Source: Flavobacteriaceae bacterium (GTDB lineage Bacteria > Bacteroidota > Bacteroidia > UKL13-3). Taken from it: a DNA stretch of 59,730 nt. The translations under genes and the position numbers were made by a program. The stretch is from positions 1-59,730 of the forward strand of contig JANYDJ010000074.1 of assembly GCA_025363675.1 (NCBI GenBank). The letters run 5' to 3'. The first letter of the stretch is position 1. Each line of letters starts with the position of its first letter. Positions 5,401 to 41,252 of this stretch are shown in pieces. Under the pieces are notes generated by a model. It did not search any database and was not told the DNA's origin. It was given only the letters and a program-made list of their open reading frames with translations.

Positions 5401-5684
5401 TTATTAAGGATGATGACAAAAGATGAATGACAAAACGAATTATCGGGAAAATCTTTGACTCATTTGGGCTCACTATGTTGGAATAGAAAACAAAAGCATT
5501 TAAAGTAAACCCTTTGGTTTGTCATCGTCGTTCAAAATGGTTTGGCTTTTCTAGGGTTAGGGTTTTCGACTTATGTTTGTGAACGAAATGGGCAATATTG
5601 GTTTTTTAAATAAGAACATACAATTTTTTATATAGGAATTATATAAGAGAGTACAAGCATAGCTATCATTATGAATTTAATATT

Positions 5685-6588
5685 GAACTGATTTAAACTT
5701 TTAGAATCACTAGAAAGCAAGCTATGTAGTGCCAGTTTATCCAAGAACATATTGATGTGTCGAATCGCACAAGCAGAGTTTTAAAACTGTCGATCCATGC
5801 AAAACAGCGTTCGTTTACGAACCTCCTATTATATAATTTCTGACAGAATTCTCTTTTTCGTCCCCGCTTTTTTTTCTTTCTGTTTCGGATATTTTCTTTA
5901 ATGTTCGGCATTAATTTCCTACGTCTGCAACATCTTCTGAAGCTTTTACTATCAAAGCCTTTATCCGCATTTAGCACACTGTTTTCTACATGAATACCTT
6001 TATTCTTTAATTCATTTATCATAGCTGAAAACTGGGGAACAAGTTGAAATAAATCATGATGGTTTCCACTGGATATATTACCTAGTGCCATAGGAATTCC
6101 ATTACCATCTGTTAAAACTAATATGTTTGATGTTCTCCCTTTTTTTCGATGCTGATAGCCTATCCCTTCGCCTGCTTTTTTGGCTAAGCTATGGGTGCCG
6201 TCGAGGTTCAAATTCTCGGTATCTAGTTTACACTCTTGAAACATTAAAGCAGTATCGAACATATTTTTAAATACATTTTCTTTGCTCCATTTACGATAGT
6301 AGTAGTAAACCAACTGCCATGAAAAAGAAGGCTTAAAGCCTTCAATATCAATAAATAAACAATGCCATTGGCTGCCTGTCTTTAGTTTGTGTAAAATACA
6401 TTGTATGATTTCAACAGGATTAACTTGTGATGGAAACCCTCTTTTATTTTTTGGAATAAAGGGCAAAATGAATGTTTCTATTTCAACTTTTGTTATCTTT
6501 GCTAAATTGCTGTTCATTGGTGTGTATAGTATTGTTTCAACTATAATATACGACTTTTGAACAGCATTTTAAAAGTTTAAATCAGTTC
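5685..6588 (-). mobile_element. IS5-family insertion sequence (about 0.9 kb, single transposase ORF)
   Basis: Perfect 19-bp terminal inverted repeats: GAACTGATTTAAACTTTTA at 5685-5703 and its reverse complement at 6570-6588. They bracket the DDE transposase ORF. I could not identify a clear target-site duplication. Confidence 0.85.
5693..6517 (-). CDS. IS5-family DDE transposase
   Basis: 274 aa. The N-terminal region has the IS5-type helix-turn-helix pattern (ILHKLKTGSQW...YYYYRKW). DDE-type blocks are LNLDGTH, LVLTDGNGIP, LNADKGFDS and the C-terminal RRFVNERCFAWIDSFKTLLVRFD. Confidence 0.88.
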   Translation of the reverse strand: MNSNLAKITKVEIETFILPFIPKNKRGFPSQVNPVEIIQCILHKLKTGSQWHCLFIDIEGFKPSFSWQLVYYYYRKWSKENVFKNMFDTALMFQECKLDTENLNLDGTHSLAKKAGEGIGYQHRKKGRTSNILVLTDGNGIPMALGNISSGNHHDLFQLVPQFSAMINELKNKGIHVENSVLNADKGFDSKSFRRCCRRRKLMPNIKENIRNRKKKKRGRKREFCQKLYNRRFVNERCFAWIDSFKTLLVRFDTSICSWINWHYIACFLVILKV

Positions 6589-6610
6589 GTATAAAGATGA
6601 AATTAAATGG

Positions 6611-7105
6611 TTGATGTATTTATATTATTTGGATACTAAGTGTATTCAATACAATTATAACTATCAAGAAAACATATTAGAATTTATTTCGGAGATGGAT
6701 ATTAATTTTGAAAATATAACGGCTGTTGATACTGGTAGATTAAGGGTGTTTGGGGAGAATACAGGCAATCCTAATCCATTAAAATATTTGAGTCCAGAAA
6801 GTGATACTTTATATTTTAGACTAACTTTTACAAATAAAAAAAACTATTGTACAAAATGTGAAAAAGGTAAGGGACTAATTCCATGGTCAAATTATTTGCC
6901 CATTGAGGTTTATTATTCCCAAAAGCAAAATAAACCACTTTTTATGACGGTTACAAGCGGCGATAATATAATGATTGAGTATAAATATATGGAAAGAAAT
7001 CCTATTATTGATTCAGTTGAATTAATCTCACTATTGAATAATGAGCAATACAGAATAAATCCTTGGTTGATTGAAGGAGCTAAAAGAAGACATTATTTTA
7101 AATAA
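6611..7105 (+). CDS. hypothetical protein (start uncertain, possibly the internal Met at 6695)
   Basis: AT-rich ORF immediately next to the IS element. No recognisable motif. Confidence 0.4.
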   Translation: MMYLYYLDTKCIQYNYNYQENILEFISEMDINFENITAVDTGRLRVFGENTGNPNPLKYLSPESDTLYFRLTFTNKKNYCTKCEKGKGLIPWSNYLPIEVYYSQKQNKPLFMTVTSGDNIMIEYKYMERNPIIDSVELISLLNNEQYRINPWLIEGAKRRHYFK

Positions 7106-8059: not shown

Positions 8060-8716
8060 CTACCTACTATCAAACACCCGCACCACTTCAATTAATATAT
8101 TATTATTCAAATAACCGGCGTATCGGCTCACACTTGAGTGGTTGTTGTTTTTATTTGCCGATATAATACTTTCTTGCGATACAATTTGAACCAGCCAATT
8201 TGTCGAAAAGTTATAGGCCACAGAAAAATTCCACGCTATATCAATTCTTTTAAATGCATCACGGGCATCGTATTTTATAAAGGGCGTAAACTCAATATTT
8301 CCTCCCGCAAGAACTCCTATCACGGGTCCAGTGCTTACATAAAATTTGTCTTTATATATATAGGTATAAGTAAGTGGCACATCTATATATTGCAGTCGGG
8401 CTATTTCCCATTGGCCATTACCACCAATGGCTTGCCCCATATCGCCATATATTTTTTTGCTGCCCTTGTTTACATATTTTATTCCTATGGACCATAACAT
8501 ATTTTTCTTGAAAGGAAACTGTGTGGCCAAACCTGCGGTTAATCCGTTCTTATGATATCCACTCATCCCATCATTGTCTATTTGCGATAAACTAACTCCA
8601 ACACTTGCTTTAAATTTTGCTTGTTGTGAATATATATTTGTTGGGAATATATATAATAGTGTGAGGAGGGAAATAAATAGTGTTTTATTATATAAGTTCG
8701 TTTCGGTGGTAGTCAT
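8060..8716 (-). CDS. outer-membrane beta-barrel protein (porin-family-like)
   Basis: 218 aa. It has an N-terminal signal-like hydrophobic stretch ending ...IYSQQ, followed by an alternating beta-strand pattern with aromatic residues, typical of small OMP barrels. Confidence 0.65.
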   Translation of the reverse strand: MTTTETNLYNKTLFISLLTLLYIFPTNIYSQQAKFKASVGVSLSQIDNDGMSGYHKNGLTAGLATQFPFKKNMLWSIGIKYVNKGSKKIYGDMGQAIGGNGQWEIARLQYIDVPLTYTYIYKDKFYVSTGPVIGVLAGGNIEFTPFIKYDARDAFKRIDIAWNFSVAYNFSTNWLVQIVSQESIISANKNNNHSSVSRYAGYLNNNILIEVVRVFDSR

Positions 8717-8784
8717 TAGTCAATAGTCGTTAGTGGATAGTCGTTAGTCGTTAGTCTTTTTATCTTTTGTCTTTTATCTTTAAC
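8717..8784. repeat. short-period low-complexity block (AGTCGTT and TTATCTTT units)
   Basis: Reads TAGTCAATAGTCGTTAGTGGATAGTCGTTAGTCGTTAGTC followed by TTTTTATCTTTTGTCTTTTATCTTT. Same style as other intergenic 7-8 nt repeat blocks in this window. Confidence 0.7.
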
Positions 8785-10662
8785 CTACCTACTATATACT
8801 AATTTCCCCCTTATATATGTTTCAATCACTTTCGCATTTCTGCATTGTTTAAATGGGGCATTCATTAAATCAGTATCCAGTATAATAAAATCGGCTTGTT
8901 TTTTGGGCTCGAGGCTGCCAGTATATTTTTCTCCATTTACACTATAAGCTGCCCATATAGTCATTCCCCGCAATGCTTCCTCTTTGCTTAGGGCATTCTT
9001 TATTTGAAAACCACCTTTGGGGAATTCATTGCTATCCATTCGCCACACGGCCGAGGTAAATGTATATAATGGATTCACATCTTCTACTGGAAAATCGGTG
9101 CCCAGTGCTATTACACCTGCTCCTTTTAATAAATCTTTATAGGCATAAGCAGTTTTTATACGTTGTTTGCCCAAGCGTTCTTCGGCCCAGTACATATCGC
9201 TTGTGGCATGGGTGGGTTGTACAGAAGGGATAATACCATATTTTTTAAACTTGCGTAAGTCATTCGTGTCAACCACCTGGGCATGTTCTATTCGCCACCT
9301 ATATATATTTCTTTTTAATATAGGTTTTAGTTCTTCAATCAATCTGAAATAAAGGCGGGTAGCTGAATCGCCTATGCAGTGGGCATTGAGGGGGTATCCG
9401 TTTTCGGCACACCACAAAAATATTCTCTGAAGTTCTTTATAACTTGTCAATTCTAAACCGTACGATTTGGGTTTATCGGTATAGGGTTTTAATAATAAAG
9501 CCCCACGCGAACCCAGTGCACCATCTATATATACTTTTACTCCGTCCAAATGTAACTTATCATAATTTAAATCGGGATTTGCCGCGTGTGCATCTATAAA
9601 ATCTTGAGTAAACAAGGGCATAGCATATATATTAATATCTCTCAAAAATTTGGAAACTTTATATAAGGTATCCATTTCCAAACCCGCATCTACTACACTT
9701 GTTAAGCCTGCCGCTATACATTTTTTCTCGGCTTGTTCTACGGCAAGTTTTATTTGTAAATCATTCATTTTGGGTATGGCTTTCATCACCAAATCAACAG
9801 CATTGTCAATTAAAATACCGGTAGGTTTATTGTCTTTTATTATAATCTCGCCGCCCACAACTTTACTGTCTTTTTTTATTCCAGCAAGTGCCAACGCTTT
9901 ATTGTTTACCAATGCTGCATGGCCATCAATTCTTTTCAGTACAACAGGGATATCAGGAAAAAGTAAATTCAACTGTTCATTGGTGGGATATTCTTTGGTA
10001 GGCCAGTCATTCTGGTCCCAGCCACGGCCCATCAAGTATTTGCCAGCATGGCTCATATTATATTTTTTGCAACGTTCCAATACCTCATCATAGTTTTTTG
10101 TTCCCACCAAATCAACTATTTGCATACTCACTCCCAAACCAAAAAAATGGCAATGGGCATCTATAAAACCTGGATATATATATTTGCCTTTTACATTATA
10201 TAATATAGAGTTTGGATATTTTGTTTTTAGTTTTTCAAATTTACCAGTTTCTAAAATCCTATTCGCTTTCTCATTCAAATCATAAGTTACTACTGCCATG
10301 GCATCACACTTGGTAAATTGGCTATCCACAGTATATATAGTTGCGTTATGATATATAGTGATGGTAGAATCGGATTGGGAGAAGGAGGGGAGAGTGGATA
10401 TAAGAAAAAATAATAAAAGTGCTCTGCTGAAAAAATGTCGTCCTTCGATGAAACTCAGGATGACATTTTTTTTTGCCGTAATTGCGAGGAACGTAGCAAT
10501 CTCCTTACTTGTATGCTTTAATAGATTAAGTTTGGGAGCACACGCCCAACGAGATTGCTTCGTTATTCCTCCTCGCAATAACGGCGATATATATAATACT
10601 ATTTTATTCATTAATTGCAAAAAAGCTAAAGGCTGAATCGCCATAGTTTCGGGTTTCGGCAT
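8785..10662 (-). CDS. amidohydrolase-family metallo-hydrolase (Amidohydro_3/YtcJ-like), true start uncertain
   Basis: PGFIDAHCHF metal-binding motif, later GHAAL, HCIGD, IEHAQ and a C-terminal GTDFPVE. A signal-peptide-like FFSRALLLFFLISTLPSFSQS is present. The first ~75 codons of the ORF are translated repeat DNA and overlap rsmD, so the real start is probably internal or non-canonical. Confidence 0.8.
   Translation of the reverse strand: MPKPETMAIQPLAFLQLMNKIVLYISPLLRGGITKQSRWACAPKLNLLKHTSKEIATFLAITAKKNVILSFIEGRHFFSRALLLFFLISTLPSFSQSDSTITIYHNATIYTVDSQFTKCDAMAVVTYDLNEKANRILETGKFEKLKTKYPNSILYNVKGKYIYPGFIDAHCHFFGLGVSMQIVDLVGTKNYDEVLERCKKYNMSHAGKYLMGRGWDQNDWPTKEYPTNEQLNLLFPDIPVVLKRIDGHAALVNNKALALAGIKKDSKVVGGEIIIKDNKPTGILIDNAVDLVMKAIPKMNDLQIKLAVEQAEKKCIAAGLTSVVDAGLEMDTLYKVSKFLRDINIYAMPLFTQDFIDAHAANPDLNYDKLHLDGVKVYIDGALGSRGALLLKPYTDKPKSYGLELTSYKELQRIFLWCAENGYPLNAHCIGDSATRLYFRLIEELKPILKRNIYRWRIEHAQVVDTNDLRKFKKYGIIPSVQPTHATSDMYWAEERLGKQRIKTAYAYKDLLKGAGVIALGTDFPVEDVNPLYTFTSAVWRMDSNEFPKGGFQIKNALSKEEALRGMTIWAAYSVNGEKYTGSLEPKKQADFIILDTDLMNAPFKQCRNAKVIETYIRGKLVYSR
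10441..10584. repeat. composite repeat: one GTCATCCTGAG-type arm plus a GTCATTGCGAGG-family palindrome
   Basis: 10441-10464 is the reverse complement of GTCATCCTGAGTTTCATCGAAGGA. 10476-10490 (CCGTAATTGCGAGGA) pairs with 10570-10584 (TCCTCGCAATAACGG), and an inner GCAATCTC / GAGATTGC pair is also present. Confidence 0.8.
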
Positions 10663-11143
10663 AGTGTTTTAAATTTTTAAAAGTGAGATTTTTATGATGT
10701 TCCCATATCAACATCCCATTTTCTTTTAACAATTCTTTCTCAAATATCAGACCTATTAAATCTTCTTGGTTAGGCATATCATAAGGTGGATCGGCAAAAA
10801 TAATAGTGTACTGTGCTGGGCAGTTTTTAATAAAATGTAATACATCTTCGGTAACAGTATGTATTTGGGAGAGGCCCATTTTTTGAGCTTCACTATATAT
10901 ATATTTACAACACTTCGGATACTTGTCTACACATACTACTTCTGTTGCTCCACGGCTTGCAAACTCAAAAGCAATATTACCTGTGCCGCTAAATAAATCG
11001 AGTATAGTGAGCTGATCTATATAATATTTGTTTTCTAATATATTGAACAAACTTTCTTTGGCCCTATCAGTAGTGGGTCGCACTGGCAGTCCTGTTGGTG
11101 GTCTCAGCACATGGCCCCGATATTTGCCACTTATGATTCGCAC
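10604..11143 (-). CDS. rsmD: 16S rRNA (guanine966-N2)-methyltransferase RsmD
   Basis: 179 aa. MRIISGKYRG..L..P....RPTTDR.KE.LFNIL at the N-terminus, LDLF.G.G SAM motif and the DPPY catalytic motif. Confidence 0.9.
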   Translation of the reverse strand: MRIISGKYRGHVLRPPTGLPVRPTTDRAKESLFNILENKYYIDQLTILDLFSGTGNIAFEFASRGATEVVCVDKYPKCCKYIYSEAQKMGLSQIHTVTEDVLHFIKNCPAQYTIIFADPPYDMPNQEDLIGLIFEKELLKENGMLIWEHHKNLTFKNLKHYAETRNYGDSAFSFFAINE

Positions 11144-11967
11144 AGGGGCAATGATAAAAGCGGGAAATATAAATGCTCGGGCAATTGGTCGAAGGCTTTA
11201 TCGAAGCCAAAGTTTGCGGGGCGTTCCCCCAGTTCGGTAAACATGATATAAGTGTTCAGCAAATCTTTAAACTCATCGAAACGGTTAATAGTGCCATACA
11301 GTTTCAAAGGTTGCGTTTTGGGCGACAGTTCAAAATGCTCGTAGCTGGCCAATATATAATATAATATATCTTCGATGGTTTCGTACTCAAACGAATTGCA
11401 AAAAATAAGTTTGTTGTTTTTGGTAATTACTATATGAAAAAAATCGGGATTTATATGTGCCGTAAATTCTGTTTCATCATTACTGTTCACCATTAAGCCC
11501 GATAAAAGGGCGGTGGCATAATGTGTAACTTTTGCTTGCGGAAAATATTGAGTGATGATTTCTTTAAGTAGATTTGATATTTTAAAAACATGGAGCATAC
11601 CACTGGTTTTAAGGTGGTCAGTATATAATGTTTCTTCGTTCGGATTAAAGGGCGTGGTAAAAGTAAAAATATCTTTGGCTTTGGTGCGGTCAAACAAATT
11701 TTCGGGAAACAAGGCTGACTGGTTGTTTTCTATGATAATGCGAGAGCTGCGATAGGTACTTGTAAACTCGTGGTTTACAATATCACGCAAATCGTCGGGA
11801 TGCGATAGCGGAAAAGATTTTAAAGCTATGAATGATGAAAACTTGGGATCATATAAGGCGTAAGCCATTTCACGATCGGCCAGTTTGATATATAAGTCCA
11901 GCAGATGGCTTATATCCTCGTTATAGTTTGCAGCCTGAATTTCGTATGCGGTCATGTGATGTTGCAA
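11131..11967 (-). CDS. conserved hypothetical protein (DUF3822-like, assigned from memory of the gene neighbourhood)
   Basis: 278-aa ORF overlapping the rsmD start by 13 nt. Bacteroidota commonly have a DUF3822 protein directly upstream of rsmD. No catalytic motif seen. Confidence 0.55.
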   Translation of the reverse strand: MQHHMTAYEIQAANYNEDISHLLDLYIKLADREMAYALYDPKFSSFIALKSFPLSHPDDLRDIVNHEFTSTYRSSRIIIENNQSALFPENLFDRTKAKDIFTFTTPFNPNEETLYTDHLKTSGMLHVFKISNLLKEIITQYFPQAKVTHYATALLSGLMVNSNDETEFTAHINPDFFHIVITKNNKLIFCNSFEYETIEDILYYILASYEHFELSPKTQPLKLYGTINRFDEFKDLLNTYIMFTELGERPANFGFDKAFDQLPEHLYFPLLSLPLCES

Positions 11968-23903: not shown

Positions 23904-23941
23904 AAAAAAAACCGCCAGTGAATATCACTGGCGGTTTTTTT
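23904..23941. terminator. bidirectional rho-independent terminator
   Basis: ACCGCCAGTG-AATAT-CACTGGCGGT hairpin flanked by an A-run and a T-run, sitting between two convergent genes. Confidence 0.85.
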
Positions 23942-35096: not shown

Positions 35097-35174
35097 TTTT
35101 CATTTTTTTTTACAATTCCACGCAACCATTTCACCTTAAATGGAGTTTAATTTGTAAAATTAAAACTTAGTTAT

Positions 35175-36017
35175 ATGCAAAAATTATTTACCCCAATCCT
35201 ATTAGTTATTTTCACAGTAATTGCTCCAGCTAGTTATGGGCAGTATTGTATGTTGGCCGGCAGAACTTGTTATTCATCAGATCAGCCCGGCATTACCAAT
35301 TTTAAGTTGAATACGATTAACCGTACTTCAGGCAATGTGGAGAATAGCCAGTCAGTAGTTGTTACTACAGGACTTAGCACCACTTTACAACGCGGAAAAT
35401 CATATACTATCAGTATCACACATAGCGAGGATGTTACTAACTTCCCCGGGGCACGCAATAATATTCGTGTTTGGATTGACTATAATCAAAACAAAAAATA
35501 TACAGATGCCAATGAAACTGTGTGGAGCAAAAACCTAGCAGCACCTAGCAATACGGATAGTTTTACTTTCACCGTTCCTGCAACTGCAACTTTGGGCACA
35601 ACAAGTTTACGTGCCACTGCAAAAATGAGTGCGGATGCAGGGCACAGCCTTCCCTCGCCATGCGATAGTCCTGCAGACCCAATAGGCTACCATGGCGAGA
35701 TGGAAGATTATACTGTTAATATTGTTGCAGCTTCGGGCATTGACGATATACAAACAAATGAACTAAATTTTACTGTTTATCCAAATCCATTTAGTAGTGT
35801 TACAAATATATATTATGAGCTAAAAGAAAAATCGGCAGTGAGTGTAGATATATATAATATGTTGGGCGAGAAAGTATACGGCATTATCAAAAATCCATTA
35901 CAAGCTCCCGGTAATTATAACTATAGTTTTGATATGGACATACCTGTTGGAATATATATAATAAAACTCTCAGCGAGCGATATTGTATATACACAGCAAT
36001 TAGTTAAATCTAACTAA
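35175..36017 (+). CDS. GEVED-domain secreted protein with T9SS C-terminal sorting domain
   Basis: Signal peptide, a GYHGEMEDYTVNI (GEVED-type) motif, and a C-terminal VYPNPFSS...IYNMLGEKV...GIYIIKL tail. Confidence 0.8.
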   Translation: MQKLFTPILLVIFTVIAPASYGQYCMLAGRTCYSSDQPGITNFKLNTINRTSGNVENSQSVVVTTGLSTTLQRGKSYTISITHSEDVTNFPGARNNIRVWIDYNQNKKYTDANETVWSKNLAAPSNTDSFTFTVPATATLGTTSLRATAKMSADAGHSLPSPCDSPADPIGYHGEMEDYTVNIVAASGIDDIQTNELNFTVYPNPFSSVTNIYYELKEKSAVSVDIYNMLGEKVYGIIKNPLQAPGNYNYSFDMDIPVGIYIIKLSASDIVYTQQLVKSN

Positions 36018-36029
36018 AATTTCTAAAAT

Positions 36030-36305
36030 ATGGACAAGGCAAAAGCCTTGAAGGCATTGACGTGCATCCCCGGCGTTGGTAAATCAGTAGCACTTGATTT
36101 TTGGAGTATCGGTATTAAAAATGTTTCCGATTTGCGTGGCAAAAATGCCGAAGAATTATATACTTTATTAAACAAAGTTTCTGGTTTCACCCAGAATAAA
36201 TGTTTCCTCTATGTTTTTCGTTGTGCCATATATTATGCTGAAACTCCACCTGAAATACATGATAAGGAAAAATTGAATTGGTGGTATTGGAAGGAGCATT
36301 ATTAG
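36030..36305 (+). CDS. helix-hairpin-helix domain protein (Cdd1/pathogenicity-locus-like)
   Basis: 91 aa. L.CIPGVGKSVALDFWSIGIKNVSDLRGKNAEELY is an HhH motif. Confidence 0.6.
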   Translation: MDKAKALKALTCIPGVGKSVALDFWSIGIKNVSDLRGKNAEELYTLLNKVSGFTQNKCFLYVFRCAIYYAETPPEIHDKEKLNWWYWKEHY

Positions 36306-36336
36306 TGGTCAGTAGTTAGTAGTCAGTGGCTGACGC
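36306..36336 (+). repeat. AGTAGTY short-period block ending in a GGCTGACGC core
   Basis: TGGTCAGTAGTTAGTAGTCAGTGGCTGACGC, immediately after the stop codon of the HhH gene. Confidence 0.65.
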
Positions 36337-36352
36337 ATGATTATATGATAAA

Positions 36353-36461
36353 CGTCATTGCGAGGAGCAGTGTGTTTGGCTGTGCGTGAGAGCGACGAAG
36401 CAATCTCATTCGAACTCGTTTTCAAAATGAGATTGCTTCGTCGTTCCTCCTCGCAATGACG
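36353..36461. repeat. palindromic element, GTCATTGCGAGG family (full copy)
   Basis: The outer arms CGTCATTGCGAGGAG ... CTCCTCGCAATGACG and the inner arms CGACGAAGCAATCTCAT ... ATGAGATTGCTTCGTCG form a long hairpin. ORF 36309-36530 is just its translation. Confidence 0.85.
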
Positions 36462-36684
36462 ACTACTTTGCACACCCATGATGTTGTATATGGCTATCGC
36501 ACCCGTGCTGTGCAGCAGTGCCGGGACCACATTCTTGGTAGCAATGGCCTCTTAGTGCTGCTAAGCTTCCTATAGTAATTGCCATTGCGGCAAAGAATAC
36601 GATGATTTTTGAACTTTTTTTCATGATAGTATTATATTAATTATTAATGGTTAATTATTAATGGTTGATGATGGACAGCTATTA

Positions 36685-36978
36685 TTATTTGGTTTCTTCG
36701 TTGGTTGGTGTTGAAGGCATTTGATGGGCATCATATCCGCAACATCTGTTTCCCCATTTTTGTCTAAATACTTTGCGTTCATCTTCACTCATATTTTGAT
36801 ATTTCTGAGCGAATGCATAACGCATCTCCCTGCGGTGTCTGCCAAAGCCCAACAAGCGGAATGCTCCGGCTATCAGCATAAAGAATAAGAAAATTCTGAG
36901 TAAGAAAAAGGGCATCATAAATAAGGCCAAGCCTACCATTATTCCTGCCAATACTGTTTTAAAAAATTGCTTTGTCAT
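36685..36978 (-). CDS. small membrane protein, paralog of 39443-39757
   Basis: 97 aa. Two TM helices are followed by a basic stretch and the motif NMSEDERKVFRQKWGNRC, shared with the 104-aa protein at 39443-39757 (NMTPEEREKFKSEWRERC). Confidence 0.6.
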   Translation of the reverse strand: MTKQFFKTVLAGIMVGLALFMMPFFLLRIFLFFMLIAGAFRLLGFGRHRREMRYAFAQKYQNMSEDERKVFRQKWGNRCCGYDAHQMPSTPTNEETK

Positions 36979-37031
36979 AATTGTTTTTTGTTAATTTTTA
37001 TTTTTTGAATTAATATTTTTTTGAACTTACG

Positions 37032-37095
37032 CGTCATTGCGAGGAGGCTCCCGACGTGGCAATCCCATTGAGTGTGTGCTCAGTTTAGATTTGAT
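37032..37095. repeat. half copy (left arm and loop only) of the GTCATTGCGAGG-family element
   Basis: CGTCATTGCGAGGAGGCTCCCGACGTGGCAATCCCATTGAGTGTGTGCTCAGTTTAGATT. The loop resembles the 10476-10584 copy, but no right arm follows. Confidence 0.65.
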
Positions 37096-37304
37096 CCTCC
37101 GCAGAATTCTTTGAAATGAAACGCTTAGTTATTTAAGAAGACGAAAGAAATAATTTATTACTTTAAAATAAAAAATAATTTGCTTTTAAAGTCCATGTAG
37201 TTACCTCAAAAGACACAACCAGAGGCATTGTGTAACCTGAGAAGACAAGTTGGATTTTAAATTATCTATAAGTTTTTATTCTTGTTTAAAACAATTTTGT
37301 TGTA

Positions 37305-37312
37305 TACTTTTG
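37305..37312 (+). promoter_or_regulatory. -7 promoter box TAnnTTTG (TACTTTTG) for the TA operon
   Basis: Exact consensus match 25 nt upstream of the ATG at 37337. Confidence 0.4.
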
Positions 37313-37336
37313 TAAGTAATTCGATTTAATCTACAA

Positions 37337-37543
37337 ATGAAAATATTATTAGATATTCCCGACAACAAAGCATCATCATTCATGGATGTATTGAAAAGCA
37401 TTTCATATGTGAAGGCTAAGCCCATTACCGATGCAAAGGCTTTGTTAATGGAGGAGATAAAAGAAGCTGTTGATGAAATGAAATTGATAAGGTCTGGTAA
37501 GAAAAAAGCGAGGAACGCAGAAGATTTTTTGAATGAGTTATAA
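37337..37543 (+). CDS. type II antitoxin (small Bacteroidota-type)
   Basis: 68-aa ORF overlapping the toxin start by 11 nt. The acidic/basic helical C-terminus (LIRSGKKKARNAEDFLNEL) is typical of antitoxins paired with RelE/HigB-like toxins in this phylum. Confidence 0.65.
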   Translation: MKILLDIPDNKASSFMDVLKSISYVKAKPITDAKALLMEEIKEAVDEMKLIRSGKKKARNAEDFLNEL

Positions 37544-37862
37544 AGTAAAATCTATTGCAGTTTTTGAGAGGCAAGCTAAAAGGTTAATTAAAAAATACCC
37601 TTCTCTTAAAAACGAACTTATGCAATTGATTCAAGTGCTTAAAGAACATCCGGAACAGGGAACATTTATTGGCAAAAGTTGTTTCAAAATTAGACTTTCT
37701 ATATCATCTAAAGGTAAAGGAAAATCAGGTGGAGCTAGAGTTATTGCAAACTTTATACTTATGGAGAAGACCGTGTATTTGCTGACTATTTATGATAAAT
37801 CAGAAAAGGAGAATCTGACGGATAAAGAATTAGAAGAACTATTAAGGTATATTCCTTTGTAA
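37533..37862 (+). CDS. type II toxin, RelE/HigB (Gp49-like) family
   Basis: 109 aa. F..Q.K.L.KK...L......L...P..G......C.K.R........GKSGGARVI......VYLL.IYDKSE..N is the pattern of RelE/HigB-like mRNA interferases. Confidence 0.8.
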   Translation: MSYKVKSIAVFERQAKRLIKKYPSLKNELMQLIQVLKEHPEQGTFIGKSCFKIRLSISSKGKGKSGGARVIANFILMEKTVYLLTIYDKSEKENLTDKELEELLRYIPL

Positions 37863-38056
37863 TCACAAGATCAAAATCCCGATAGAATGTTGGATTGGGA
37901 TGCAGCATCTAAAACATTGAAATCATAATGTCCAAGTATACAGTAAACATTGATACTGATGCTTTACATGATATACAAAATGCAACTGATTGGTATAATG
38001 AAGTGTTAAATGGCTTAGGTGCTAGTTTTCAGAACCAAGTAAAATTAATAGCCTAA
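37863..38056 (+). pseudogene. remnant of a second TA locus: antitoxin C-terminal tail plus a 3'-truncated ParE/RelE-like toxin
   Basis: An open frame ...NPDRMLDWDAASKTLKS stops at 37926-37928 in a TAATG overlap with a 42-codon ORF, MSKYTVNIDTDALHDIQNATDWYNEVLNGLGASFQNQVKLIA. That ORF matches the N-terminal half of ~95-aa ParE-like toxins and ends 6 nt from the TIR gene stop. Confidence 0.5.
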
Positions 38057-38062
38057 ACTATT

Positions 38063-39136
38063 TTACAATTTGAAAGGTTTTATATCTTTTACTTTTATTT
38101 CTTTTGTGGTCTTTTCAACTTCGCTAAATCGAATTGTATTTTGACTCTTTAGTTTCCCGAAAAGCCCATTAAAACCTTCTTCATCTTGATCTTTTTTTAA
38201 ATCAAGCACTTCCCTGCCCCTAATGCCTGTTGGAACTATATCTTCTATAGAATTTATGCCAAAAGACACAAAGATGAATTTATTCACCATAGTTTTAATC
38301 TCCTCAACTATAATTTGAAATTCTGTACCGACACCTCCTTGAAAAGTATTTGCTTTTTCTTTATATTTAGGAGATAATACAACTACAACTTTATTTGCAT
38401 CCTGCAAACCAGTTATCATCATTTTGTTAAAGTTTGTAGCAGTTTCTTCTTGACTTTTCATTTTATCCATTGAAGCGTTATAACCGTTTTTTCTTAAAAA
38501 GTCTACAAATGAAATTATTTTATCATTGTGCTCTTCGTCTTCCCAGGCATATGATATAAATACATTTATTTCATCATTTGAATCTTCGACTTTTTTTGTT
38601 CGGCTATGTTTTTTGAGAGTGTTTTTCTTTAGATTTTGCAAACCTTTTATTAATTCTTCCCTCACTTTATTTGGTATATACTGTAGACCAGATTTTCCAA
38701 AACTATGGTGTGCTGAAATTAAAGTGATATCGGAATCGTCATTTTGAATAAGTTCATTAATTTTTTCAACCATCTTTTCTGGTAATGCTCTAGTTACACG
38801 AGAACCAGATATATGCTCTAAACTTTCTTCAATATAGCCAATTCCTTCATGTATTCTAGCAGTAGCAATATCGTAACCTAACTGTTCGGAGATTTTCGAG
38901 GTGTCAATTGGTATATTGTTTTCAATTTCTCCAAATGGGTCTTGTATGCTTCCTTCAATTTTACCTTTGAGTTTTCTATAATTTGGTAGTTCTTTTCCTT
39001 TATAGCCATTCAATTCTAAATTAACATATCCTAGTAACTCAAGGTCTCCTTCCTGTTCTATATATTCTCTTGCTTCGAGAAGTAATAGACTAATTTTACC
39101 TTGACCACTAAGAAGTTTTGTAATTAATTCGTTCAT
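38063..39136 (-). CDS. AbiTii-like N-terminal domain fused to a SEFIR/TIR-like domain
   Basis: 357 aa. The C-terminal half has INVFISYAWEDEEHNDKIISFVDFLRKNGYNASMD...ANKVVVVLSPKY, the betaA-alphaA-...-betaD pattern of SEFIR/TIR_2 domains. The N-terminal LLLEAREYIE...LLGYVNLELNGYKGKELPNYRKL resembles the AbiTii motif (from memory). Confidence 0.78.
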   Translation of the reverse strand: MNELITKLLSGQGKISLLLLEAREYIEQEGDLELLGYVNLELNGYKGKELPNYRKLKGKIEGSIQDPFGEIENNIPIDTSKISEQLGYDIATARIHEGIGYIEESLEHISGSRVTRALPEKMVEKINELIQNDDSDITLISAHHSFGKSGLQYIPNKVREELIKGLQNLKKNTLKKHSRTKKVEDSNDEINVFISYAWEDEEHNDKIISFVDFLRKNGYNASMDKMKSQEETATNFNKMMITGLQDANKVVVVLSPKYKEKANTFQGGVGTEFQIIVEEIKTMVNKFIFVSFGINSIEDIVPTGIRGREVLDLKKDQDEEGFNGLFGKLKSQNTIRFSEVEKTTKEIKVKDIKPFKL

Positions 39137-39143
39137 AGGGTTA

Positions 39144-39175
39144 TTTTAATTAGTGATATTTATCACTAATTAAAA
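39144..39175 (-). promoter_or_regulatory. perfect 15+15 bp palindrome (candidate operator or 5'-UTR hairpin) 8 nt upstream of the TIR gene ATG
   Basis: TTTTAATTAGTGATA-TT-TATCACTAATTAAAA. The arms are exactly complementary. Confidence 0.55.
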
Positions 39176-39331
39176 ATTTATTATCTTATATTCTAAGATA
39201 TTGTTAGCGATTATCTTCAACAAATATAACTTATTTAAAGCCACACAACCAAATCATATTTTCAGTCTAAGTGTCCCTGTATTTGGCTATTCGTTGTAGC
39301 GAACTAAACCAGAGGCATTGTGCAACAATCA

Positions 39332-39445
39332 GGCGTCAGCCAAATCGTAAATCGTAAATCGTAAATCGTAAATCGTAAATCGTAAATCGTAAATCGTAAA
39401 TCGTAAATCGTAAATCGTAAATCGTAAATCGTAAATCGTAAATCA
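39332..39445 (-). repeat. GGCGTCAGCC core followed by about 14 tandem copies of the heptamer AAATCGT
   Basis: GGCGTCAGCC at 39332-39341. Perfect 7-nt periodicity runs from 39342 to 39440, plus a partial unit that contains the stop codon of the 104-aa gene. Confidence 0.9.
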
Positions 39446-39757
39446 TCTTCCACATCTCTCCCTCCACTCACTCTTAAATTTCTCCCTTTCTTCGGGTGTC
39501 ATATTCATCATTTTTTGTTTCATGCCCCAGCCATTCTTCATTGGTGGTCGTCCGCCTTTGCCTTTGAAACCGCCGAAAAGAATACGGCAGAGAATTAATA
39601 AACCTAATGCTTTCCAATACGTAAGCATGCCCACTGTGGGTATAAGTTCAGGTATAATATTATTCCATAAAAACATTACGACCCATCCGCCCGCTGCTAT
39701 AAATGCGAGAAAGCCTAAACCAAATAATGGGTACATATAAAATCTTTTGTTGTACAT
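39443..39757 (-). CDS. small membrane protein, paralog of 36685-36978
   Basis: 104 aa, two or three TM helices and a C-terminal NMTPEEREKFKSEWRERCGR. It lies 11 nt downstream of the ECF sigma gene. Confidence 0.6.
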   Translation of the reverse strand: MYNKRFYMYPLFGLGFLAFIAAGGWVVMFLWNNIIPELIPTVGMLTYWKALGLLILCRILFGGFKGKGGRPPMKNGWGMKQKMMNMTPEEREKFKSEWRERCGR

Positions 39758-39768
39758 AATTGTATAAA

Positions 39769-40329
39769 TTAATATTGTATAAAATCTTGGTATAAATTGT
39801 TGAGTCGCAGGCGAAGATGCTTTACTGCATAGCCTTTGCGAGATATAATAGTTTTAATATTTTCTCCAGTTTGGTCTGCAATTTCCTGCAAACTTATATC
39901 TTCTAATTCGTTTTGTATAAATACAGTTTTTTGTTTTTCGGGAAGTTCCTCTAGGGCATTCATCAGCTCATCCCAAAATATTTTTTTGAAATATTCATCC
40001 TCGGGTGTGTGACTTTGCGATAATAATATTTCTTTAAAATTTACTTCACCATCGTCGCTGGTAAATGAAAAATCTTCCACCGATTCTGTTTTCTTTTTCC
40101 TGAAGTTATCGGTGATTTTATTTTTGGCCACACGGTAAAGCCAACCGCTAATGCTCTCAATAGTTTCTACTTCTTCCAAATTACTAAACTGGTACCATAC
40201 ATCCTGTAAAATATCCTCAGCATCCTCGTCGGTAGCTACTTTACCACGAATGAACGACAGCATTTTTTTGCCGTACTGGTTTACTGTTTGTATTATATTT
40301 TGTCGGTTTCTTTGCATTGCAATTTCCAC
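39769..40329 (-). CDS. ECF-type RNA polymerase sigma-70 family factor
   Basis: 186 aa. Region 2 (DAEDILQDVWYQF...WLYRVAKNKITDNFRKK) and region 4 (LQEIADQTGENIKTIISRKGYAVKHLR). Confidence 0.85.
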   Translation of the reverse strand: MEIAMQRNRQNIIQTVNQYGKKMLSFIRGKVATDEDAEDILQDVWYQFSNLEEVETIESISGWLYRVAKNKITDNFRKKKTESVEDFSFTSDDGEVNFKEILLSQSHTPEDEYFKKIFWDELMNALEELPEKQKTVFIQNELEDISLQEIADQTGENIKTIISRKGYAVKHLRLRLNNLYQDFIQY

Positions 40330-40465
40330 GGCATCTCCTTTTTTTATTGGTAGACGAATGGAGTTTGGTTTTACTTTAAAATAAAATTTTATTGCAATGT
40401 TAATAGGTAATTTGCGAATATGTATTTTAAATTATCTTTGCATTGTTCTGTAATTCAAAAGTTCT

Positions 40466-40573
40466 CGTCATTGCGAGAAGGCTTCCGACGAAGCAATCTC
40501 AGGCCGAGTGGTACTTCCAGAGATTGCTTCGTCGCCCAGGCACACAGGCAAACGCATACTCCTCGCAATGACG
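40466..40573. repeat. palindromic element, GTCATTGCGAGG family
   Basis: CGTCATTGCGAGAAGGCTTCCGACGAAGCAATCTC ... GAGATTGCTTCGTCG ... CCTCGCAATGACGG. It accounts for the artificial N-terminal extension of ORF 40420-41142. Confidence 0.85.
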
Positions 40574-40599
40574 GCAGCTCAAAAAACTATTATAATACC

Positions 40600-41142
40600 A
40601 TGGGGAAATTCCACGACACCATTCAAGATTCCACAAGAGAATTTATTGCCAACCAGCAGATGTTCTTTGTGGCAACAGCACCACTAACCAGCGAAGGTCA
40701 TATCAATTTATCGCCTAAGGGATTGGATGCTTTTAAGATATTGTCTCCAACCAAAGTTGCTTATATGGATTTGATTGGTAGCGGCAATGAAACGGCTGCA
40801 CATATATTGGAAAACAAAAGAATTACTTTCATGTTTTGCTCGTTCGATAAAGTACCGAATATATTGCGATTATATGGAAAAGGATATGCTGTAACATGCG
40901 AAGATGCAGAGTGGGCAGAGCTTGCAGCACATTTTACAATATATCCCAGCACCCGCCAAATTATTGTGGCTGATATTTATATGATACAAAACTCTTGCGG
41001 TTATGGAGTCCCTTTCTATGAATATCAGGGCGAACGTCACATTCATTTCGACTGGGCCGAAAAGAAGGGTGAGCAAGGGCTGGAAGATTATAAGAAAGAG
41101 AAAAATTTGGTAAGTTTGGATGGTCTTGCTACGGGGTTGTAA
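40600..41142 (+). CDS. pyridoxamine 5'-phosphate oxidase-family (FMN-binding split barrel) protein
   Basis: 180 aa from the internal ATG at 40600. FFVATA....GH.N.SPKG......L....VAY.DL.GSG.ET..H......ITFMFC is the pattern of PNPOx-like proteins. The upstream part of the ORF is repeat DNA. Confidence 0.78.
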   Translation: MGKFHDTIQDSTREFIANQQMFFVATAPLTSEGHINLSPKGLDAFKILSPTKVAYMDLIGSGNETAAHILENKRITFMFCSFDKVPNILRLYGKGYAVTCEDAEWAELAAHFTIYPSTRQIIVADIYMIQNSCGYGVPFYEYQGERHIHFDWAEKKGEQGLEDYKKEKNLVSLDGLATGL

Positions 41143-41160
41143 TAATAATACCGCCTACCA

Positions 41161-41252
41161 TCCCTCTCCAAATGGAGAGGGTGACGAGCGAAGCAAAGTC
41201 GGGTTCCTTCCCTCTCCAAATGGAGAGGGTGACGAGCGAAGCAAAGTCGGGT
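41161..41252 (+). repeat. tandem duplication (48-nt period) of a 44-nt hairpin-containing REP-like unit
   Basis: TCCCTCTCCAAATGGAGAGGGTGACGAGCGAAGCAAAGTCGGGT occurs identically at 41161-41204 and 41209-41252. Each unit contains the CCCTCTCC-AAAT-GGAGAGGG hairpin. Confidence 0.9.

Follow-up and report, generated by a model that had tools for sequence, protein, structure and literature searches.

AbiTii-SEFIR, a mobile two-domain protein family of Bacteroidota and candidate single-gene defence system

The 59,730-nucleotide stretch of contig JANYDJ010000074.1 from a Flavobacteriaceae bacterium that was analysed here (the window) carries a gene for a 357-residue protein in which an N-terminal AbiTii domain is joined to a C-terminal SEFIR domain, a member of the TIR superfamily. 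With moderate confidence we read this gene, AbiTii-SEFIR, as a self-contained, single-chain defence gene of the abortive-infection type that is mobile in Bacteroidota and combines bSEFIR-like NAD+ hydrolysis with AbiTii as a sensor or gate. In the mechanism that we propose, AbiTii would hold the SEFIR effector off until a presumed infection cue arrives, and activation would probably proceed through self-association of SEFIR domains. Glu272 of the motif GGVGTE would then hydrolyse NAD+, releasing ADP-ribose (ADPR) together with nicotinamide, and the loss of NAD+ would starve both the infected cell and the phage.

Both domains were identified by profile searches. In Pfam-A, residues 2-172 match AbiTii (PF18864; E = 2e-15 and 57.9 bits, the cut-off being 27.6), residues 191-300 match SEFIR (PF08357; E = 2.6e-15, 57.4 bits) and residues 192-325 match TIR_2 (PF13676; E = 6e-14, 53.0 bits), the latter two also above their curated cut-offs. 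An AbiTii-like N-terminus and a SEFIR/TIR-like C-terminus, which had been proposed in an earlier, sequence-only reading of this DNA, are thereby borne out. The motifs quoted there are all present in the translation, in which NVFISYAWEDEEHNDKIISFVDFLRKNGYNASMD, VVVVLSPKY, GGVGTEF and LLGYVNLELNGYKGKELPNYRKL are found. The PADLOC model for bSEFIR matches the protein with E = 8.6e-38 (129 bits), the alignment covering only positions 25-183 of the 412 in the profile, i.e. the SEFIR part, and leaving positions from about 184 to 412 unmatched. The PADLOC model for AbiTii matches at 5e-15. In plasmid and phage collections, matches were obtained to the SEFIR domain only, none of them full-length.

The C-terminal domain was compared with known structures. 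A profile of 20 family members reaches the Bacillus cereus SEFIR (BcSEFIR) structures 5Y8E/5Y8F with E = 5e-15, with GGVGTE aligned residue for residue, and a search of the Protein Data Bank (PDB) with the single sequence leads to the same structures. The full-length AlphaFold2 model has a predicted local distance difference test score (pLDDT) of 78.8; when it was compared with the PDB by Foldseek, bacterial SEFIR 5Y8E/5Y8F was again the best match (E = 1e-6, target TM score 0.71-0.74), so that the predicted TIR/SEFIR fold was recovered in the structural check as well. A fold search of BFVD with the whole-protein model returned nothing at E ≤ 0.001. Judged from these alignments, the C-terminal domain is best assigned as a bacterial SEFIR of the catalytic type.

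Two residues of this domain, D224 and E272 (in GGVGTE), are invariant in an alignment of 20 relatives with 41-62% identity. D224 is the aspartate just past strand B. E272 (codon 38321-38323) comes after strand C (VVVVLS), where the next helix starts, a location which we take to be that of the catalytic glutamate in TIR NADases. Both residues align with BcSEFIR, D224 with D37 and E272 with the glutamate of GGVGTE. The glutamate that the sequence-only reading had suggested as catalytic thus stands as an invariant residue within a motif common to BcSEFIR; the phmmer alignment with the TIR protein 7UXR stops short of it. In the characterised bSEFIR of Bacillus sp. NIO-1130, which protects against phi29, the exchange D40A abolishes defence (10.1101/2022.05.11.491447); by its alignment with D37 of BcSEFIR, D224 may be the counterpart of this residue.

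Eukaryotic Act1 is a scaffold, and human Act1 is the next hit after BcSEFIR in the profile search. Among the lower-ranked Foldseek matches are Act1 and the SEFIR domains of IL-17RA/RB, followed by ThsB2, TLR1, SPARTA and the TIR domain of SARM1. Such strong structural matches to Act1 and IL-17RA would suit a non-enzymatic adaptor, in which SEFIR serves as an interaction module in a process unrelated to defence, and a hypothesis of this kind was raised earlier for bacterial SEFIR proteins (Yang et al. 2018, cited by 10.1101/2022.05.11.491447). We consider an adaptor highly improbable, as the glutamate of GGVGTE, which is replaced by a lysine in Act1, is invariant in the AbiTii-SEFIR family and the genes lie in mobile, defence-rich genomic contexts. 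Nucleoside 2-deoxyribosyltransferases, which have the TIR fold in common, were also found among the structural matches. Together with the cleavage of ATP by other defence effectors (10.1101/2023.01.24.525353) and the pairing of AbiTii with HEPN RNases elsewhere (PMC3710099), they would be compatible with abortive infection through a substrate other than NAD+, either another nucleotide or a nucleic acid. This has a low probability in our judgement, given that the closest characterised relatives, the bSEFIR proteins, make ADPR and nicotinamide from NAD+ and have GGVGTE in common with AbiTii-SEFIR.

The SEFIR domain is followed by a conserved tail that ends invariantly in KPFKL and that is modelled with low confidence (pLDDT below 50 for residues 333-347 and about 47 for the last residues). 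The same tail accompanies this SEFIR module everywhere, including proteins with leucine-rich repeats (LRR) and other N-terminal architectures. It could be an autoinhibitory or an oligomerisation peptide.

The AbiTii domain was modelled alone with AlphaFold2 using 31 sequences, which gave an alpha+beta structure (pLDDT 91.8, predicted TM score (pTM) 0.83) with a long terminal helix, residues 148-177, that connects to SEFIR. A Foldseek search of the PDB found no structural neighbour of this domain (best E 0.25, probability 0.05, TM below 0.2). Its invariant residues E41 (codon 39014-39016), G44, Y45, P51, Y53 and R54 form the motif E-x-x-G-Y...P-x-Y-R and include the highly conserved glutamate described in PMC3710099, where AbiTii was defined and found to form the N-terminal part of fusions with HEPN RNase domains, and where a shared logic was proposed for such N-terminal domains of Abi proteins. 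Single-chain defence proteins are typically built from a sensor or regulator and an exchangeable toxic effector, and mainly by this analogy AbiTii would be the sensing or gating part.

The homologue search returned at least 74 clusters (90% identity) with the same AbiTii plus SEFIR/TIR_2 architecture, 354-407 amino acids in length and 40-63% identical. All named members are from Bacteroidota (Flavobacterium, Marixanthomonas, Porphyromonas cangingivalis, Marivirga and Agriterribacter), and public records label family members as 'AbiTii domain-containing' or 'SEFIR domain' proteins. Both halves of the protein are swappable modules. SEFIR together with the tail (57-63% identity) is also found behind LRR in Chryseobacterium and behind two unrelated N-terminal regions, while classical proteins with an N-terminal SEFIR are only 30-34% identical. 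An exhaustive search with AbiTii only yielded 74 representative clusters; the 69 proteins from it that were scanned with Pfam contained AbiTii (67), TIR_2 (6), SEFIR (5) and a CAP12/Pycsar-type TIR (1), and many of the remaining AbiTii proteins are about 300 amino acids long with a C-terminal region lacking a Pfam match. The protein with the CAP12/Pycsar-type TIR, P0093, is the closest relative in the AbiTii domain (40% identity); the remainder of this protein, at the C-terminus, is hit by the PADLOC candidate PDC-S35. In one large protein (P0097, 1358 amino acids), AbiTii residues 82-130 are matched in 11 separate stretches, which likely represent a repeat unrelated to AbiTii function; a strong Calx-beta match in one scanned protein probably belongs to P0097.

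In Bacteroidota, AbiTii-SEFIR is an accessory gene that moves as an integron cassette and as cargo of conjugative transposons. At 7 of 13 homologue loci (L003, L004, L005, L006, L082, L084 and L085) the gene is a cassette with its own attC site directly 3' of the ORF (open reading frame) and a 5' boundary of the form GTTRRRY that is complementary to the R'' box of this site. The first bases of each cassette complement its own 3' box, as in L084 with GTTGTAAAAC...GTTTTACAAC and GTTACCCACC...GGTGGGTAAC. In L082 the gene starts 10-15 nt past GTTAGGC, and immediately behind it come the reverse complement of this start (ACTTTGCCTAAC) and then an imperfect hairpin ending in GTT; the neighbouring ORFs on the same strand are spaced by similar sites of about 140 or about 200 nt. 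With about 140-205 nt, the attC sites are long. When 20 of them were analysed with RNAalifold, 11 of the 12 stem pairs showed compensatory changes. A covariance model trained on these 20 sites detected, at E ≤ 1e-3, 37 sites that all lie on the strand of the gene; 17 were outside the training set. They are arranged as arrays in L082, L084, L085 and L004 (Table 1) and as single sites directly past the AbiTii-SEFIR stop codon in L003, L005 and L006. Two preceding crude regular-expression/hairpin scans for attC were dropped in favour of this model, the first being too strict and the second giving window counts at the level of shuffled sequence.

A tyrosine recombinase is encoded two genes upstream in L082; with 223 bits it passes the cut-off (220) of the NCBIfam model NF040815 (Xer/integron integrase), and it reaches 185 bits, below the cut-off of 265, with the stricter integron integrase model TIGR02249. 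No recombinase was found for the other arrays within the DNA that was fetched. An IS110-family transposase gene lies inside an attC site of the L085 array (5528-6980). The same array contains a cassette, 8666-11221, which begins with GTTAGGC, ends with the GCCTAAC of its attC and holds two ORFs without an attC between them. The first of these (8859-9893) encodes an unannotated protein of 344 amino acids with a hydrophobic N-terminal segment and has no match in NCBIfam or PADLOC; the second is AbiTii-SEFIR.

Other copies of the gene reside on conjugative elements of the CTnDOT type with tra genes, beside ArdA, or near tra genes, and an integrase also occurs in the surroundings. Neighbours at the homologue loci encode AbiH, HEPN, a ThsB-like TIR and a TIR-HD protein, and at least 8 of 86 such neighbours match PADLOC models (LmuA, RmrA, Avs-like, capP, DRT-like and PDC candidates). 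Integron cassettes are reservoirs of defence genes according to PMC13434031 and 10.64898/2026.03.17.712381, which cite Darracq 2025, Kieffer 2025 and Getz 2025, and complete integrons are reported to be very rare in Bacteroidetes (PMC9024848). The arrays described here show that integron-like arrays holding defence-type genes exist in Bacteroidota. They suggest that standard attC detection may overlook such long sites, and they take the concept of the integron as a biobank of defence genes past Vibrio and class 1 integrons. We regard these Bacteroidota arrays with long attC sites, the orphan fold of AbiTii and the conserved tail of low model confidence as more surprising than the domain fusion itself. 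A further-reaching proposal, which we put forward only tentatively, is that AbiTii is a structurally novel infection sensor that would directly gate NAD+-degrading effectors, SEFIR in this protein and the Pycsar-type TIR in the closest relative, P0093; AbiTii-SEFIR would then be a distinct single-gene defence family restricted to Bacteroidota and spread by overlooked long-attC integrons, and an understanding of it would also clarify how lactococcal AbiT works.

In order to identify conserved neighbours, 136 ORFs located within 3.5 kb of the gene at 14 loci were compared all-versus-all. No conserved partner gene was detected, as no neighbour family occurs at more than 2 of the 14 loci, which upholds the proposal that AbiTii-SEFIR is a single-gene system. 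This result also bears on the question whether the protein might be a signal-generating TIR like ThsB of Thoeris, producing an ADPR-derived messenger for an effector encoded elsewhere. The weak matches of PADLOC ThsB models and the presence of ThsB2 among the structural neighbours point in this direction. Such a role nevertheless appears quite improbable to us: no effector neighbour is conserved at the 14 loci, a single gene borne on a cassette must function alone after transfer, and the SEFIR match reaches 129 bits against 13 bits for ThsB.

In the window, which belongs to a metagenome-assembled genome of an uncultured member of Bacteroidota, AbiTii-SEFIR occupies a variable segment of 5.1 kb together with a toxin-antitoxin (TA) pair, a ParE stub, two ORFs for small membrane proteins and a gene for an extracytoplasmic function (ECF) sigma factor. 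In the related genome L088 (about 80-86% DNA identity) this segment is absent, and the ABC-F and PNPOx genes are separated by about 40 nt; a third relative, L090, carries other cargo between them. The islet with TA modules noted in the sequence-only reading was found to consist of one RelE-type pair and a ParE stub of 42 amino acids. The pair comprises the genes 37337-37543 and 37533-37862, of which the latter matches RelE (PF06296) in Pfam; the 68-amino-acid ORF has no family match and is a putative antitoxin on the basis of position and size only. The intact ParE of L090 has 103 amino acids and is matched by the window at 86% through '...FQxQVK', where the homology breaks off at about 38046. 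Because this break lies 18 nt from the stop codon of the convergent AbiTii-SEFIR gene, we conclude that the arrival of AbiTii-SEFIR, or a deletion linked to it, destroyed the ParE toxin gene. Comparison of window positions 37235-38046 with L090 8841-9282 further reveals a TA mosaic, in which most of the ParD antitoxin gene is replaced by the module of the 68-amino-acid ORF and RelE-type toxin; of the L090-type ParD/ParE, the window keeps only about 56 nt from the 3' end of the antitoxin gene and 42 codons from the start of ParE.

The possibility that the window copy itself lies inside an integron was rejected, as no attC site was found in the 59.7-kb window by the covariance model with filters off (best E 0.84) and the cassette 5' boundary GTTAGGC is absent upstream of this copy. 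The 18 nt past its stop codon resemble a cassette 3' end (AATAGTTTAGGC compared with AATACTTTGCCTAAC), a similarity too short for proof. The window copy is, in our reading, an orphan that lost its attC.

Neither ThsA nor CBASS or STING-type domains were detected by Pfam among 20 neighbouring ORFs (28.6-46.1 kb), in agreement with the earlier reading, and no SIR2 or Macro gene is nearby. An AbiTi partner was likewise not detected among the window neighbours by Pfam or PADLOC, and none is conserved at the homologue loci. The position of the window copy among TA genes, next to tested neighbours without a match to defence models, and its occurrence as an integron cassette and as cargo of integrative and conjugative elements (ICEs) would also fit a toxin for the stabilisation or competition of mobile elements, with SEFIR arresting growth, AbiTii inhibiting it in cis, and the gene retaining arrays or ICEs or defending them against plasmids and rivals. 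We consider this unlikely, since the gene stands as a single ORF and no antitoxin-like partner recurs from locus to locus, the bSEFIR effector class has a demonstrated anti-phage role and integron cassettes are described as defence-gene reservoirs in PMC13434031, which cites Darracq 2025 and Kieffer 2025.

The upstream region of the window copy, about 300 nt, is unrelated to that of any homologue. The palindrome described at the 5' end of the gene in the sequence-only reading is real, with arms of 15 nt, but it is specific to this copy and not a feature of the family, since none of the 13 homologue loci has it. The window contains just one further perfect palindrome whose arms reach at least 11 nt, an ordinary terminator (23905-23941), and in 40 block shuffles the longest arm was 9-13 nt. 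As an RNA hairpin the palindrome has a folding energy of -12.4 kcal/mol, and its half-site does not occur elsewhere in the window beyond chance; it is a candidate operator or 5' untranslated region hairpin. As integron cassettes normally lack their own promoter (PMC13434031) and the window copy is outside an integron, it would need a different promoter; the octamer TATATTTG is a weak candidate for a Bacteroidetes-type -7 box. A perfect tandem repeat of the heptamer AAATCGT (14.7 copies, 39342-39444) begins at the stop codon of the ORF for the 104-amino-acid membrane protein, some 206 nt upstream of the start codon of AbiTii-SEFIR, and looks prone to slippage.

Further observations concern the surroundings of the gene. 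Copies of a palindromic repeat similar to repetitive extragenic palindromic (REP) elements, with the core CATTGCGAG-N8-CGACG-NN-GCAATC, are located at 36353-36461, 37011-37081 and 40466-40574 and also occur in L088 and L090. The latter two copies flank the part of the islet that runs from the TA pair over the ParE stub and AbiTii-SEFIR to the ECF sigma factor gene, and such repeats may be recombination hot spots. An inverted match of about 110 nt around the islet was dismissed as a pair of transposon ends since it consists of these repeat copies. An Rfam search of 36.0-41.5 kb at E ≤ 1 gave no match near the gene and only chance microRNA-like matches at the hairpin 36377-36461, which are explained by the REP-like repeat there. 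The G+C content of the islet (30-32% compared with 33-42% in the flanks) differs too little to be of use. The two small predicted membrane proteins (36685-36978, minus strand, 97 amino acids; 39443-39757, minus strand, 104 amino acids) resemble each other in a motif near the C-terminus, ..ER.xF+x.W..RC; the second comes after the ECF sigma factor gene (39769-40329) and may be an anti-sigma-like partner. The PNPOx ORF (40420-41142) encodes 240 amino acids compared with 180 in its L088 orthologue, and its first 60 codons or so overlap the REP-like repeat, the 5' end of the ORF probably being over-extended. Between the PNPOx-like and methyltransferase genes lies a perfect direct repeat of 48 nt (41161-41252, 1.9 copies).

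Table 1. Coordinates of AbiTii-SEFIR, its domains and surrounding features in the window, and of cassette arrays at homologue loci
Feature	Location	Strand	Basis or remark
AbiTii-SEFIR gene	38063..39136	-	ATG start; 357 aa incl. stop; ORF, Pfam, PADLOC, homologue search
AbiTii domain, aa 1-178	38603..39136	-	Pfam, conservation, AlphaFold2 model
SEFIR (TIR-superfamily) domain, aa 188-332	38141..38575	-	Pfam, PADLOC, conservation, PDB sequence and structure searches
Conserved C-terminal tail, aa 333-357, invariant ..KPFKL end	38066..38140	-	Conservation, AlphaFold2 model
Perfect palindrome, 15+15 nt, 2-nt loop, 100% complementary	39144..39175	.	8 nt upstream of ATG
Possible Bacteroidetes-type -7 box TATATTTG	39221..39228	-	85 nt upstream of ATG; read from sequence
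Variable segment, 5.1 kb	35098..40210	.	Absent from L088; other cargo in L090
TA-type two-gene module	37337..37862	+	68-aa putative antitoxin and 109-aa RelE-family toxin
Truncated ParE-family toxin gene, 42/103 codons	37928..38056	+	Comparison with L090
Cassette array	L082 8300-16800		ENA metagenome contig
Cassette array	L084 5700-18300		Marixanthomonas ophiurae
Cassette array	L085 400-11250		ENA metagenome contig
Cassette array	L004 1500-7850		Bacteroidales metagenome-assembled genome

Several points weigh against AbiTii-SEFIR as a self-contained defence gene with bSEFIR-like activity. No NCBIfam model matches the protein, and none of the eight window neighbours tested matches PADLOC, so that the locus does not qualify as a classical defence island. 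The SEFIR domain is located at residues 188-332 of 357, and not at the N-terminus as in the selection rule for bSEFIR (10.1101/2022.05.11.491447). The full-length model has a pTM of 0.47, and the arrangement of the two domains is therefore uncertain. The equivalence of E272 to the TIR catalytic glutamate is suggested by motif position and conservation and not by a residue-level superposition. Finally, lactococcal AbiT requires both AbiTi and AbiTii, its mechanism being unresolved (PMC13064643), and the AbiTii of Lactococcus is thus dependent on a second gene. If the defence reading is correct, AbiTii would be a new sensor module among NAD+-depleting defence proteins, and AbiTii-SEFIR, as a single chain of 357 amino acids, would provide a compact model for infection recognition by AbiTii.

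When compared with known systems, AbiTii-SEFIR is most readily related to bSEFIR (Millman et al. 2022), a single protein whose SEFIR domain turns NAD+ into ADPR and nicotinamide and whose action is counteracted by NARP1, a phage pathway for NAD+ reconstitution (10.1101/2024.02.11.579819; 10.64898/2026.09.04.749371). The two are alike in a SEFIR of the catalytic type with FISYAWED and GGVGxE motifs, in their single-gene organisation and in the expected depletion of NAD+, and AbiTii-SEFIR agrees with the bSEFIR definition in that SEFIR scores above TIR (57.4 compared with 53.0 bits). However, bSEFIR consists of an N-terminal SEFIR and a C-terminal region of about 230 amino acids, whereas SEFIR is C-terminal in AbiTii-SEFIR, behind AbiTii and followed by the KPFKL tail. 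By its domain order and with the rest of the bSEFIR profile unmatched, AbiTii-SEFIR falls outside bSEFIR as defined.

The AbiTii-HEPN proteins of the c2405 and Ymh families (Anantharaman et al. 2013, PMC3710099) resemble AbiTii-SEFIR in joining an N-terminal AbiTii with its conserved glutamate to a toxic effector in one chain; their effector is a HEPN RNase and not a SEFIR with predicted NADase activity. A fusion of AbiTii to SEFIR or TIR is not mentioned in PMC3710099 or in the two other papers naming AbiTii in the literature searched. AbiT of Lactococcus lactis, which has an abortive-infection phenotype, likewise has the AbiTii domain in common. It is, however, composed of two genes, with AbiTii lacking a recognisable effector, whereas in AbiTii-SEFIR the effector is fused and there is no AbiTi-like partner; without AbiTi it is not an AbiT system. 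P0093 has the same size and layout, with an AbiTii domain of 40% identity and a TIR-superfamily effector that belongs to PF10137 and not to SEFIR. The LRR-SEFIR proteins of Chryseobacterium (P0080-P0088), from the same phylum, have a SEFIR plus tail of 57% identity but an LRR module instead of AbiTii. Thoeris has the TIR fold in common, while a linked ThsA was not found.

The defence cassettes of integrons (Darracq 2025; Kieffer 2025; Getz 2025) are similar to the AbiTii-SEFIR homologues, which are cassettes of a single ORF, each with an attC of its own, in arrays that keep to one strand; a recombinase of the Xer/IntI type lies by one of the arrays found here. Those studies concern Vibrio and mobile class 1 integrons, whereas AbiTii-SEFIR is from Bacteroidota, with attC sites of about 140-205 nt and a window copy outside an integron. 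Overall, the suggestion that this fusion is uncharacterised holds for the position of SEFIR at the C-terminus behind AbiTii, while bSEFIR and fusions of AbiTii to effectors had already been described. Thus, AbiTii-SEFIR represents a new arrangement, with SEFIR at the C-terminus behind AbiTii, and not a new class.

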